Source: Eledone cirrhosa (Eukaryota). Taken from it: 64,000 nt of DNA. The translations under genes and the position numbers were made by a program. The notes under the pieces are model-generated. The model was not told the DNA's origin and ran no database searches. It saw nothing but the letters and a program-made list of their open reading frames with translations. The stretch's first letter is position 1; each line of letters opens with the position of its first letter. Of the stretch, positions 1,795 to 53,581 are shown piece by piece. The stretch lies in the NCBI GenBank assembly GCA_964016885.1, contig OZ024756.1, positions 41,106,001 through 41,170,000 on the forward strand. The letters are read 5' to 3'.

Positions 1795-1852
1795 ACACTA
1801 TGCACATTTCAGTTGCCAGGTTGCGTAATAACCCGGTGACCTCATCAGGTGT
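1795..1852 (-). ncRNA. Minimal type-I hammerhead ribozyme-like motif
   Basis: Minus strand: acac-CTGATGA-ggtcaccgggtt(attacgc)aacctggcaact-GAAA-tgtgca-TA-gtgt; intact core, 12-position stem II with 2 mismatches, near-palindromic stem III. Confidence 0.7.
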
Positions 1853-2052
1853 AAATTGTGTAAGAGATGTATACCAACGGAATGATGGTAAACTTTAAGG
1901 AAACAAGCAGAGAGGAAAAAGTGTGTTTATGTTTTTGACCCAGAGACAAACGTAGTAGCATGTTGTTACAATGTCTCATATATATACATATATATATATA
2001 TATGTATATATATGTATATATATGTATATGTATATACGTATATGTATATATT

Positions 2053-2227
2053 CGAGGGTCGGCTGAAAAGTTAATGGAATGACCAAATGAGGTTTATTTT
2101 TCAACATAGTCCCTGGAAAGAAACAACGCAGTTATTAATAAGCACTGTTGAAATTAATGCATGCAAGATTTCACAGCTCTAGCATCAATCTTTCATCATC
2201 ATCCTATGAACTTTTCAGCTGACCCTG
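2053..2227. mobile_element. Tc1/mariner-derived MITE
   Basis: TIRs cgagggtcggctgaaaagtt / aacttttcagctgaccctg followed by TA; sits beside a TA-rich array. Confidence 0.65.
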
Positions 2228-5200
2228 TACATAAGATGCTGTTTGATGATGTAGCATTACTGGTTGTATAATTGAAGCATGATGAAGCCATGAGTGCCAC
2301 TGAAATATGTATCACAGCTTTATGAATAAAGGAATTTTGAACATCTACACCTGACCTTCACAATCATCCTTATTGTGTATGTGTATATATATATATATAT
2401 ATATATATATATATATATATATATATATATATAAAGTATATATCATCATCATCATCATCATCGTTTAACATCTATCTTCCATGTTAACATGGGTTAGACG
2501 GGAATTGTCCCACTTGAGGCAAGATACATATACATATACATATGTACATATATATATATACACACACACACACACACACATTGAAATTCTTGGCACAGAA
2601 ATAGTAAGACATATGTTTAAGTTTGAAGAGACCACTTAAAGCACCATTGTCTTCCATAGTCCAGTTGCAGCCCAGCATTATTTGATTCATGTGCATCTCA
2701 TAAATCACTCAATTTGTAATACCTCGTCTTGTAAACTGCTGGCGACATATTTCAATAGTTTTGATGGTACCACCCTAAAGACTTCCATTATCATCTAGCT
2801 ACAGTAACTAAACAAACTTCAACTTTCAGCTTATGTCTGACTTCTTGGTGTTGTTTAATCCCAAGTCAGCATTTTTTAGGGGGCAGACCTATGATCAAAG
2901 ACATTCCACGAGTGACCATCTCATCTTTTTGTTTCTTCTCATAGTGTACAGTGTACCTAGGACTACATTATTTCATGTGTTCATCCTTCTTTCTTTTTTT
3001 TCTTTTTTCTTTTCCTTTTCTTTAAGTTAGTTAACTAAAAATGCTGCTGCTGCTGTTGTTGTTGTTGTTGTTTATAACAAGATCAAACAAACCTATTATT
3101 AAAAGCATTGCAGTTATGACCATACATACCCCCCCCTCTCTCTCTCACTATATATATATATATATATATATAGCTATCTATTTATCTATCTATAGCTATC
3201 TCTCTCTCTCTCTCTCTCTATATATATATATATATATATATATATATATATATATATATATATGTGTGTGTGTGTGTGTGTATATATATATATAAACAAA
3301 AGCAGTTTGAAGGACAAATCATAAATATAAAGAATAACATATTGTTATCTAAGTGGCTGTGGCTGTTGCAGAGCAACTTTTACTTCTTCTGAGACAGAAG
3401 AGTGAACTTTGGCATTTGTTCAGGTGTGTAAAACAATTCACGGTAAACAAAACAATGAAGAATTTACCTGGGGGAAGATACTACAACAACAACAACAACA
3501 ATAGTAACAACAATAACAGCAGCAGCAACGGCAGCAGTAGCAACAACAATACAAACTACGATGACAGCATCATCAACAACAGTTACAGCAACAACATCAA
3601 CATCATCATCACATGTCAGTATTCAACATAAACTATAGGGTTTCTCTTATGTAAACCATCAATTTATTATAAAACAAATTTTCCAATTTGTATGATTATT
3701 TATGTCCTCCACTAAAGTGGAATTTGCCAACACTACACCTGATATCCCCCCCCTCCATACACACACACACATGTATATCATGACTCATACACTGTTCACT
3801 TACCTGACATTTGTACATCATTCTATGTACTATACATGCACCTTTGATGAGTTGTAGTGCACCTCAACACTGTACACAATAATTTCATTATTATATCAAT
3901 ATTGGTAGAGGGTCGGACGCCATGTCGACCCTCTAATAAAGTACCAGTCACGCACTGGGGTAAATTTAATCAACTTCTCCCTCCCCAACAACATTGCTGG
4001 CCTTGTGCCTATACCATTATTATTGTGCCTAAACCATTATTATATTATTATATGACATACACACACACATGTATATCATGACTCATACACTGTTCACTTA
4101 CCTGACATTTGTACATCATTCTATGTACTATACATACACCTTTGATGGGTTGTAGTGCACCTGAGCACTGTACACAATAATTTCATTATTATATTATTAT
4201 ATGACATAACAATCCTGGACTCCCCAAGTTAAATATATTCAACACCATTGTCATCATTTCTGGCGGCACTGGTCCACAACATCCACATACCCCCTTCACT
4301 AATTTATGAGGGTGTGAATACAAGAAAAGGAGTACTCAATACATACAGTAGAGATTATTGATTTAATTGACACTTAAAACTTCACTCATCACTTTATTTC
4401 TGACTTCTCATTCCATGGACATTGCCTTAACTTTTATATAAATGTGTGTATGTTATATGTATATATATATATATGTGTGTGTAGAGAGAGAGAGAGAAAG
4501 AGAGAGAAAGAGAGAGAGAGAGAGAGAGAGAGATTGTGTGTGTGTTGAGAAGGTAGCTGCAAAAGGGAAAAAAAGAGGGGGTAGAAAAGGAGAGAGAGAG
4601 GAAATGAGAGAAGTGTGTGAGTGTGTGTGTGTATTTGTGTATGTGTGTGAGTGTGTGTGTGTATTTGTGTATGTGTGTGAGTGGTGTGTGTGTGTGTGTA
4701 TGTGTATATATGTGTGCGTGTATGTGTGAGTGGCGTGCATATGTGCGTGTGTATGTGGGTGGTGTGTGTATATGCATGTGTGTATGTGTGAGTGGTGTGT
4801 ATATATATATATATATATGTGTGTGTGTGTGAAACGTTTCAAACTCCTCCTCTGTTCACCTGGTTTCCATCAAATATAAAGATTTTATCAAAAGTTATGA
4901 TTTCAGATAAACAGACTCGCAGCTAAATGGAGGAAACATAATTTAAAAACATAAAAAACAACCCAAAATATTTTACGGTGAAATTAGATTGTTTTTAATT
5001 TTATATACATTAAAAGAAAGGAAGTGTAATGTTTAATTCTGTCACATAGTTGAGTATATACATACATACACACACACATACATACATACATATACACAAT
5101 CATACATATACATATATATATATATACATATATATATATATATATATATATATATATATATATATATATATATATATAAAGTTATATCTGTATTAATACA

Positions 5201-5312
5201 GAATATGTAACTGAGACTGCACCAGTGTGTATAAATATATACATATATCTAATATGTAGGCATGTAAACATGTCTGAAAATAAGAATTTCCCTGTAAATT
5301 GAAAAAGATGAT

Positions 5313-5429
5313 AAACACCTTTAATTGATTTTTGGATCTAATTGGACCCTCATCAGAAGGGTTGATTGGATGATATACATACCTTTTGATGAGGGCCCAA
5401 TTAGATCTGAAAATCGATTAAAGGTGTTT
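5313..5429. ncRNA. Inverted pair of hammerhead-like motifs (5316-5360 on -, 5380-5426 on +)
   Basis: +: tacctt-TTGATGA-gggcccaattagatct-GAAA-atcgat-TA-aaggtg; -: cctt-CTGATGA-gggtccaattagatcc-AAAA-atcaat-TA-aagg. Each copy carries one core substitution. Confidence 0.65.
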
Positions 5430-51335: not shown

Positions 51336-51600
51336 ATCATCATCATCATCATCACCGTTTTACGTCCGTTCTTCCACGCTAGCATGGGTTAGACGGGTTG
51401 TCCTGTTGTGGGCAGTGTCTGGTCGGCTGACCATGCCTTGCTCATACAAGAACTGATTTGGCTTGATTTCTACAGCTGGATGCCCTTCCTAACACCAACC
51501 TCATTTACAGTGAGTGCTGGGTGCTTTTTCGTGGCGCCTACACGTCCACTTTACAGTGTGGGCTGGGTGCTTTTTTGCCGTGGCACCTCCACGACCACCT
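51336..51600 (-). mobile_element. Inverted family-C copy
   Basis: Near-identical reverse complement of 50803-51058. Confidence 0.75.
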
Positions 51601-52789
51601 TGCGGTGGGGGGGCATATTGTTTATATGCTTCAGCTTGTACCCATGGGAGGTCGGGTACTCTGTATTACTGCGTGACGCCAGAAGTCACGGTCATGTGTC
51701 ATTGCCTTTGAGAGGTGTAATTGGGTAAGGTCGGCTTTTATTGCCTTTGAGAGGTGTAATTGGGTAAGGTCGGCTTAAGGTCTTTCTTTATCTTTATCTC
51801 TTTCTTTTTCTTTTTTCTCTATACCTTTTTCTTTTTTTTCTCTCTTTCTTTATTAATGATGTTGTAATTTGAATTCATAAATGCTGAGTATATTTTTAAC
51901 AGTCCTTTCTGATGATCTGGTTAAGCTAACATCGTATTTAAAACTGAGTGACACAACTTCAAGTGTTCAGCAATTGTTAGACAACTTAATCAGTGAAACA
52001 ATTGTTAAGACTAAATAAAACCCCTTTTTTGTACTGTTGACCATGTTATTCTTCACTCTTCCAATATATATATACGAAGTGAAACATGGTCATCAGACCA
52101 GTCTTGCCTCAAGTGGGACAAACCTGTCTAATCCATGCTAGCATGGAAGATGGACATTAAACGATGATGATGATATACATACACATATTACCTACCCAGA
52201 GTTATATACACACACACGTTACCTACCCAGAGTTACATATATGTATAATATATATATACACATGTAGACAGGTGAAATGTGTGTGTGTATACACACACAC
52301 TTCACATACCCAAATGATATAAAACCATTATATTTTATGGAAAAATCTATCATAATTTTATATAAGAACCTTTGTTATGTTCCAAATACCTGCTTGATTA
52401 TTTTCAAAATTATTTGAAATTAATAGAGATTATCTTTCATAAGAAAGTATGGTAATGAAATGGTTAAAAAATATTACTTTTAATTACAGATGTAGAAAAC
52501 ATTCTGGATGAAAAGAACAAAGTTGCTCTATGTTTGTACACTATTCTACATACTATATATGCACCTTTGATGAGTTGTAGTGCACCTGAGCTCTGTACAA
52601 TAATTCTCATTATTATAATACATTCTGCCGAATATACACACACAAAAATGCTTGGATAGGTTTTTTTTTACATTGACATAAAATGAAACCCTAATAATTT
52701 ACAAAAGAGTTTGTTGCTATTTAGACTCACACTTTGTAGGTTTAGCCAGCTTCCTATAAAGTTACATCGGGGTTTCCAAGATTTTAAAA

Positions 52790-52981
52790 TCCTTTAGCAT
52801 TTAAACTGGCTGTATCTGGCCAGAATTCTCTCACCTCTTTCTGTTCACACCGGTCGTAACTGACCTCTCATACTGATGTTAATGTATTGGTCTCAAAATA
52901 AATAATATCAAAATCACATAGATTCAATATTATGTGAGATAAAGCCTTCACTGCGAAAATACAATAGTAAATGCTAAAGGG
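52790..52981. mobile_element. piggyBac-like MITE
   Basis: 13-bp TIR cctttagcattta / taaatgctaaagg; TTAA target duplication is degenerate. Confidence 0.5.
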
Positions 52982-53518
52982 TCTCAATTGCCATATCACC
53001 ATTTTTCCAGTCACTGAATTTGAACTTAGAAGACACAGACAGAAGGAACAACTGCTGAAAGACATCCTATTTGACATTCTAACAATTCTACCAAACCAGT
53101 GACCCCTAAACTGCTACTTTATTGATCCTGAAAGAACAATAAACAATGTCAACCTTGGTGGGATATGAACTCAGATCACAGTTAACAAATATGACAATTT
53201 AATCTGTCACTTGTAACATCTCAGCCAATTTGAAAGTTAGAAGTAACAATGTTGTTTGACTATGAAAGATAGTCTAAGTTTTGCATATGAAAGGTGAAGA
53301 CAGTACAGCTCATATCATCATCATTTTTATGTTGACATTCACATGCAAGTATGGCTTGGATCAGACTTTTTGAGGCTATACATATATATATATATATATA
53401 ACCAAAGATTAGTATGGTTTGTTGATTACTCAATGAATACAATTTTACAATAGATTAGACTGCCAATACTGGAATTGAATAATCAAAACCGTAGCAGTAT
53501 GTCGCATATCAAATCTCA

Positions 53519-53581
53519 TATTTTGTCTGATGAAAACGTACTTAAACACCATTGTACCTTTGAAATATGTATAATAGAATA
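53519..53581 (+). ncRNA. Type-I hammerhead ribozyme-like motif related to the 28-kb pair
   Basis: tattttgt-CTGATGA-aaacgtac(ttaaacaccatt)gtaccttt-GAAA-tatgta-TA-atagaata; stems differ in sequence from 28289-28353 but still pair. Confidence 0.72.

Follow-up and report, generated by a model that had tools for sequence, protein, structure and literature searches.

Why should hammerhead ribozyme motifs from unrelated sequence families so often stand in a genome as back-to-back pairs that face outwards? The question is raised by 64,000 nucleotides of Eledone cirrhosa DNA (assembly GCA_964016885.1, contig OZ024756.1, positions 41,106,001 to 41,170,000; hereafter the window), in which an earlier note, made from the sequence alone, had placed hammerhead-like motifs at seven sites and divergent pairs at four of them, near 5, 24, 28 and 40.6 kb. 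We confirmed the positions and strands of the motifs at all seven sites, and all four pairs are indeed divergent. We propose that each divergent pair is probably a single insertion, the arms of which are inverted, hammerhead-bearing 3′ ends of either a Penelope-like element (PLE; 28, 40.6 and 53.5 kb) or a short non-coding monomer (24 and 5 kb), laid down by two-strand priming at a (TA)n target. That these sequences are PLE-type debris appears, from sequence comparison, nearly certain. The pattern is real and not due to chance, and it is the known insertion anatomy of endonuclease-positive (EN+) PLEs, produced here by Hydra-type families and by retrozyme-like monomers. Double-hammerhead palindromes in this genome would then be retroelement debris whose outward orientation follows from the insertion mode of the element, and recognizing them as such removes a false lead for annotation.

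Divergent hammerhead pairs in the window and in the genome

Type I hammerheads were located with a descriptor written for this analysis, which combines the core CUGANGA and GAAA with stems I–III and UH. It found four perfect-core motifs in the window (1848 and 28058 on the minus strand, 28297 and 53527 on the plus strand) and three further motifs with one core change (5356, minus, G12A; 5386, plus, C3U; 34993, plus, G12A), making seven at that tolerance. The earlier note had proposed a shuffle control, and 30 dinucleotide shuffles in 1-kb blocks yielded no perfect core and 0–2 one-change motifs (mean 0.3), which places the motif density in the window above chance. Core, GAAA, UH and helices I–III are all present in the four perfect motifs, and the other seven motifs of the window are damaged or non-canonical. 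The descriptor rejects the motifs at 24 and 40.6 kb; relatives in both families fold as type I hammerheads. Rfam hammerhead families were absent from the best 150 of 270 window matches, and across eight loci no Rfam hammerhead model matched at its gathering score. Ribozyme activity is predicted from the sequence, and because stem III is short and palindromic, dimers may be required for cleavage.

Arms were delineated by BLAST self-comparison of the window, which is rich in AT and dense in (TA)n and further simple repeats. Within the pairs at 5, 24, 28 and 40.6 kb the arms are reverse complements of one another, with identities of 90, 88, 96 and 83%, so that paired motifs do not count as independent and each pair is a single inverted duplication rather than two separate ribozymes. 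The sites at 1.8, 35 and 53.5 kb had been read as singletons; this holds for the first two, and the third has an inverted arm that consists of tail only. Most hammerhead copies in the window are decayed.

The divergent bias extends well beyond the window. A wider scan for divergent pairs, a check that the earlier note had named, covered 80 stretches of 10 kb, evenly spaced on the larger contigs and chosen blind to content (800 kb of 3.0 Gb). It contained 39 perfect-core hammerheads, against 0 or 1 in 20 shuffles, and by this measure the density of the window (4 per 64 kb) is ordinary. An inverted copy lay within 5 kb upstream of 23 of the 39 hammerheads (14 insertions with at least six stem II types) and within 5 kb downstream of none; a few of the 39 lay near the end of a stretch, where there is little room for a mirror copy. 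Counted by insertion, 14 of 14 mirrors were upstream (p = 1e-4). Among 118 inverted-repeat records from the same sample, a redundant set in which most members lack a full core, the core pointed outwards in 12 and inwards in one. The bias is real and genome-wide. Extrapolation gives about 146,000 perfect-core hammerheads in the genome (bootstrap 86,000–210,000), the same order as the 120,000 retrozymes of the axolotl (PMC7229834).

Palindromes of the 28 kb family have one arm that continues into a conserved tail of about 91 nt, followed by (TA)n, and a second that terminates in (TA)n at a fixed short end; their centre varies between copies. The arms of the window insertions and the single copies are given below, with other loci of the genome referred to by number (L252 and so on); the 3′ end of a PLE is its pseudo-long terminal repeat (pLTR).

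27871..28182, minus: tail-bearing arm of the 28 kb family, matching the 3′ end (pLTR) of a Hydra-type PLE; intact hammerhead, core 28052-28058; tail of about 91 nt ending in (TA)n; 92% identical to the 3′ end of the full-length element L252
28184..28394, plus: tail-less arm of the 28 kb family; intact hammerhead, core 28297-28303; stops at the short end in (TA)n; 96% identical to its partner arm and 97% to L252
40560..40668, minus: tail-bearing arm of the 40.6 kb family; CUGAUGA core 40655-40661 intact, stem II closed by U.U; shares 84% identity over 76 nt with the pLTR that lies immediately 5′ of an intact Hydra ORF (open reading frame) family
40671..40745, plus: tail-less arm of the 40.6 kb family; core 40678-40684 damaged (G5A); 83% identical to its partner arm
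5179..5360, minus: long arm of the 5 kb family; CUGAUGA intact, G12A; within a likely non-coding monomer of about 340 nt
5361..5429, plus: short arm of the 5 kb family; C3U, core 5386-5392; extends beyond the long arm on the upstream side of the element
24077..24205, minus: left arm of the 24 kb family; internal deletion; C3U, core 24199-24205
24212..24463, plus: right arm of the 24 kb family; 5′ strand of stem I lost at the junction; continues into sequence that other copies have upstream of their hammerhead (342-nt monomer); 81% identical over 239 nt and 80% over 96 nt to L058
53399..53458, minus: tail-only inverted arm of the 53.5 kb insertion; 86–94% identical to the tail of the sister copies L243 and L195
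53459..53628, plus: tail-less arm of the 53.5 kb insertion; intact hammerhead, core 53527-53533; ends in (TA)n; about 70% identical to the 28 kb family
5859..6060, no strand assigned: fifth head-to-head insertion; one-sided tail in (TA)n; both arms cut within the hammerhead, leaving its GAAA-stem III-UC half; 14 of the 80 sampled loci contain relatives
1730..1942, minus: lone truncated member of a further dispersed hammerhead family; perfect core 1842-1848; 87% identical over 224 nt to L305
34965..35135, plus: lone truncated member of a family with a minimal hammerhead; G12A, core 34993-34999; relatives retain GAAA, and eight lie in the 800-kb sample

Hydra-type PLEs and retrozyme-like monomers as sources of the arms

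A search for autonomous partners, also suggested in the earlier note, led upstream of the arms to a Hydra ORF partner for the 28 kb family and, for the 40.6 kb family, to a sister pLTR next to a Hydra ORF. The 28 kb family has 2497 first-look candidates in the genome. At loci chosen by ORF similarity, a 28 kb-type pLTR stands in sense at 16 of 20, either just before the ATG or 1.1–1.9 kb past the ORF, and 11 of the 16 are at least 91% identical to the window arm. L252 and L255 present the order inverted arm, pLTR with tail, ORF, untranslated region (UTR), pLTR with tail; a pLTR-ORF-pLTR partial tandem with a hammerhead in the pLTR is present in L244, L252 and L255, and the pLTR-to-pLTR period of the Hydra-type unit is 4.0–4.2 kb. 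A sister family with an 82% identical pLTR has many open copies of a 737-codon ORF. On this sequence evidence, the 28 kb pair is the truncated 3′ end of an ORF-bearing Hydra-type PLE. Some 28 kb-family arms, at L117 and L254, pass through the tail into the leader before the ATG, which suggests a third, rarer 3′ end. Another candidate partner, a Neptune-like ORF in L105, adjoins a 28 kb-family palindrome and was rejected on finding that it has its own pLTR. It is an open PLE ORF of 775 codons in tandem (L105:3108-5432) with a separate upstream ORF, and its pLTR contains a core-like motif, CUGAAGA, that escapes the descriptor.

The Hydra-type protein (737 aa, open) gave a profile match over 592 columns (probability 98.3) to a PLE ORF that is Pfam-positive for RVT_1 and GIY-YIG, and its predicted structure (predicted local distance difference test 88.7) had a telomerase reverse transcriptase (RT) as top Foldseek match (E 6.7e-10). 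Its nearest named homologue is from Argonauta hians (41%); RT matches in a PDB sequence search were non-significant (E 0.67 and 0.73). A single ORF with a telomerase-like RT plus GIY-YIG at the C terminus occurs in relatives of the 28 and 40.6 kb families elsewhere in the genome; within the window we found no PLE ORF, as the earlier note had stated.

By motif list, these families match the Hydra clade of C-terminal EN+ PLEs (Craig 2021). Proteins from L231 and L343 contain DKT, the CxCX5C linker, CxxC and CxH, lack CCHH and have RWR in place of RWK; a single ORF, 737 to about 758 codons long, that has RWR, DKT, CxCX5C, a GIY-YIG-like YVG, CxxC and CxH, without CCHH, is a likeness to the described clade, as are the hammerhead and (TA)n insertion. 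The unit of about 4.0–4.2 kb, because of its long 3′ UTR, exceeds the length of generally <3 kb that the paper gives as a tendency. Outside cnidarians the paper reports few Hydra families, whereas here they are very abundant, with dozens of near-identical open copies. Hydra ORF matches occupy 14,304 of the 800,000 sampled bases. Neither Pfam nor Rfam picks up the Hydra-clade load of this genome, which is very large and partly intact. A recent octopus repeat annotation counts Penelope-like elements, and in its main text the words 'Hydra' and 'ribozyme' do not occur (PMC13282606). The families described here may already be catalogued in Repbase or Dfam.

Two further observations concern the Hydra-type elements. 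L231, L343 and their relatives make up two ORF families (738 and 758 codons from stop to stop) with dozens of near-identical open copies, and for that reason may have been active recently. Copies of a Hydra-associated family at L143 and L336 share a variant core, CAGAAGA instead of CUGANGA.

The 40.6 kb family has 2152–2572 candidates in the genome. A complete 40.6 kb-type pLTR directly precedes the ATG of a second Hydra ORF family at 11 of 15 loci (the query locus among the 15), and we class the 40.6 kb pair, from its sequence, as a sister of the Hydra-type PLE end. Throughout the group, stem II is closed by U.U and retains 3 bp, the tetraloop varies and stem I is compensated. In 23 distinct copies 90.6% of cells pair and two stem I pairs have changed on both sides, a count that is supportive and not a p-value, the structure being our own and the rows related. 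An upstream walk at 20 loci of one sister subfamily met only nested, unrelated Hydra copies. The idea that this family is a fixed element of about 150 nt was dropped, as its sister subfamilies run on upstream for about 1 kb and one of them stands before an ORF. An additional fragment of the family lies at 31935-31985 on the minus strand of the window.

The 24 and 5 kb families are of another kind. In both, sequence found 3′ of the hammerhead recurs 5′ of it in other copies, and at the same locus in four of 23 loci (24 kb) and five of 20 (5 kb). The 24 kb family continues head to tail at many of 40 scored places, and L352, one of three loci examined for dimers, is a dimer whose two perfect hammerheads are spaced by 342 nt. 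The monomer is 342 nt long, 32% GC and non-coding (longest ATG ORF 55 codons). Non-LTR (long terminal repeat) retrozymes are described as non-coding monomers of about 170–400 nt with GC <45% and a type I hammerhead (PMC7229834; bioRxiv 10.64898/2026.07.22.740005). The 24 kb family matches this sequence definition in its monomer, type I hammerhead and head-to-tail dimer, and its 342-nt non-coding monomer and two-ribozyme dimer lead us to call it retrozyme-like. The 5 kb family is likely to be retrozyme-like as well: it is terminally redundant in five of 20 loci with a period of about 340 nt, compared with 350–390 bp in the mussel retrozyme, and no dimer was present among the loci examined. Unlike retrozymes, the 24 and 5 kb copies are mostly dispersed one- to 1.5-mers; they are only about 75–80% alike and hence old. 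PLE-type inverted arms, present in the monomers here, are not described in the passages searched of the retrozyme papers (Cervera and de la Pena 2020; Li, Clavereau and Pollet 2026). Both kinds of monomer are likely to be mobilized by the same enzymes as PLEs. The earlier note had suggested a class of non-autonomous elements, which fits the 24 and 5 kb families; the 28 kb pair, by contrast, is assigned to the end of an ORF-bearing PLE and the 40.6 kb pair to a sister of such an end.

The overall layout is a published one. EN+ PLEs are known to form partial tandems with an inverted, 5′-truncated copy and a one-sided tail of 30–40 bp and to target (TA)n (PMC8557442; Craig 2021), and head-to-head is their commonest arrangement, for which self-priming on an antisense template has been proposed (PMC3846280; Arkhipova 2013). 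The insertions here share the head-to-head layout, one-sided tail, partial tandems, pLTR hammerhead, (TA)n targets and heavy 5′ truncation described in these two papers. They differ in their longer tails (about 75 nt in relatives of the 40.6 kb family and about 91 nt in the 28 kb family, versus 30–40 nt) and in that most are reduced to the two ends alone. The suggestion that an under-described class of element had been met is therefore not supported, given that the inverted-pLTR-plus-tail layout is in print and short hammerhead monomers are known retrozymes (PMC7229834).

Junctions and the origin of the inverted arms

In the divergent insertions the arms are mirror copies, their outer ends lie at two fixed, family-specific positions, one with and one without a tail, and their variable 5′ ends meet centrally; ORF-bearing relatives exist. 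In the 28 kb family, 130 of 134 arm ends fall at either the short end (55) or the tail end (75). Thirty tail arms were chosen on their last 138 nt; an inverted arm abutted 18 of them (inspection added a 19th), and no partner carried a tail. The tail-less arm reached further upstream in nine of these 18 pairs and the tail arm in six, with three ties, and at seven of the 20 ORF loci it was the tail-less arm that carried the ORF. Tail-only arms that start within 2 nt of the short end were found in two unrelated families (3/75 and 3/42 arms). Subfamily alleles of sister arms agreed in 97 of 107 comparisons, compared with a mean of 67% and a maximum of 88% in 5000 permutations. The ribozyme does not appear to determine where the junction falls, since just one of the 30 tail arms has its 5′ junction end close to the predicted cleavage site. 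The flanks are (TA)n on both sides, which makes a target-site duplication unreadable there.

From these genomic copies, we favour with moderate confidence a two-primer route to the inverted arms. Both strands of a cut (TA)n target would prime reverse transcription. One nick would start it at the tail end and its counterpart at the short end, in most cases with a single RNA, or RNAs from one source locus, as template. Both cDNAs would usually stop early, and head-to-head joining of their ends would follow, often where short palindromes lie. The hammerheads would be passengers, facing outwards only because they sit 50–150 nt from the 3′ end of the element. The shared subfamily alleles of sister arms point to one RNA or one source locus, and together with the two fixed ends, the tail-only arms and the fact that either arm may be the longer, they favour two priming events over a simple fold-back. 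In LINE-1 twin priming, the second target strand primes on the same RNA and produces an inverted segment at the 5′ junction. By contrast, here the second start site would be fixed by the element, and the arms usually overlap, which would require the RNA to be copied twice.

A PLE protein studied in vitro both cuts and extends the two target strands, and its two start sites on the RNA lie on either side of the tail; the protein is predicted to be a dimer, and hammerhead cleavage is dispensable (PMC11167929). A stronger proposal is that PLEs integrate by obligatory double priming, in which a dimeric enzyme would cut both (TA)n strands, start cDNAs at the tail and short ends of the same RNA, copy the overlap twice and join the products head to head, with retrozyme-like monomers taking the same route. 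We consider this proposal to have an even chance of being right. If true, it would oppose the published antisense self-priming model, and the approximately 150,000 intact-looking hammerheads and still-open Hydra ORFs of this genome would hold enough junctions to settle the origin of PLE inverted termini. PMC8557442 states that the formation of these termini is unresolved and that the mechanism of tandem and inverted structures still requires an in vitro system; the junctions here allow a computational test of two-primer against self-priming formation. No statement of a two-primer model for PLE inverted ends was found in the open literature, the search leaving subscription papers, supplements, Repbase and Dfam outside its scope.

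The same elements could instead form the inverted arm by self-priming or fold-back, from an antisense template or from the 3′ end of the cDNA, with the endonuclease later trimming one tail. Such a route was put forward in PMC3846280 for head-to-head junctions with palindromes, junctions here do cluster at short palindromes (for example, those of the 28 kb family at about −130 to −136, those of the 40.6 kb family immediately 5′ of the core), and any copy-back predicts that sister arms share alleles. However, fold-back from a tail-primed cDNA predicts a tail arm that always reaches further upstream, and half of the 18 pairs run the opposite way; it also fits poorly with ORFs on tail-less arms (7/20 loci) and requires an extra coincidence for arms that abut at the short end without overlap (six cases and the 53.5 kb insertion of the window). 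We regard this route as unlikely. The hairpin-primed reverse transcription offered in the earlier note, as a simple hairpin from one cDNA, likewise fits less well than two primings; its wider idea of one PLE-linked mechanism that deposits 5′-truncated, head-to-head termini from unrelated families is supported by the genome sample and the ORF-linked pLTRs.

Explanations that dispense with a single PLE-type event fare worse. Two independent insertions at one (TA)n site, or a later rearrangement, might be expected to build palindromes, given that the families target (TA)n, nest in one another and are very abundant (for example L336), and that most of the 118 inverted-repeat records lack a full hammerhead core. 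Yet independent insertions predict tail-to-tail and tail/tail pairs, and there were none among 39 downstream positions and 18 partner arms, respectively; (TA)n is usually absent at the junction, and the orientation count of 23 versus 0 and the allele concordance of sister arms largely refute this origin, which we hold to be very improbable. Still less credible are miniature inverted-repeat transposable elements (MITEs) or foldback DNA transposons whose termini contain a hammerhead by chance. Many near-full-length palindromic copies exist (the 2497 and 2152 first-look candidates), but instead of symmetric termini and a fixed internal structure we find variable centres, a one-sided tail and arms of which either may continue into the RT ORF, and the one-sided tail and contiguity with the PLE ORF refute this origin. 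The double-hammerhead layout might itself be selected, as a functional two-ribozyme unit, or hammerhead cleavage might set the truncation. Stem pairing is indeed kept with compensatory changes (in the 40.6 kb group and L352), which argues for selection on the ribozyme in the source elements. Against selection on the pair, three of the four window pairs have one mutated core or more and two have no intact motif, many arms are cut inside the ribozyme (as at 5859-6060), tail arms begin near the predicted cleavage site in one case of 30, and insertion in vitro did not need cleavage (PMC11167929). We judge a selected unit highly unlikely.

Several points weigh against the reading of the pairs as two-primer PLE-type insertions. 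On the side of identity, Pfam assigns no family to the Hydra ORF itself and finds GIY-YIG weakly in six of its 47 homologues, and no autonomous partner was found for the 5, 24, 1.8 and 35 kb families. The 40.6 kb subfamily of the window is about 82–84% identical to the ORF-linked pLTR, its own ORF being unproven, and all 30 copies of this subfamily chosen on their 3′ part begin inside the core or within about 15 nt of it. On the side of mechanism, the evidence comes entirely from genomic copies. A tail-less arm that is the longer one can also arise from a self-priming hairpin if the tail is trimmed from either arm afterwards, and later conversion between arms could explain their shared alleles. 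Tail-only arms at the boundary are few (6/117) and come from selected loci; sister arms diverge modestly less than unrelated ones on a multiple alignment (1.7% versus 2.9%), and 10 of the 107 diagnostic allele comparisons disagree between sisters.

Other features of the window

Older palindromes at 17345-17547 and 22322-22543, with arms 80 and 75% alike, have no clear hammerhead, and no relatives of them were found among 1.9 Mb of loci. Positions 1-345 form an 18-bp tandem array whose minus strand has CUGACGA in each unit and lacks the GAAA half, and a strand-skewed 28-bp satellite occupies 5.8 kb at 53751-59522. Host genes are also present: a zf-HIT exon at 10919-11434; an intronless methyltransferase ORF of 239 codons with Pfam MTS at 18691-19410, which we take to resemble HemK2/N6AMT1; and, on the minus strand at 45470-48100, a C2H2 zinc-finger ORF with a long glutamine-rich tail.

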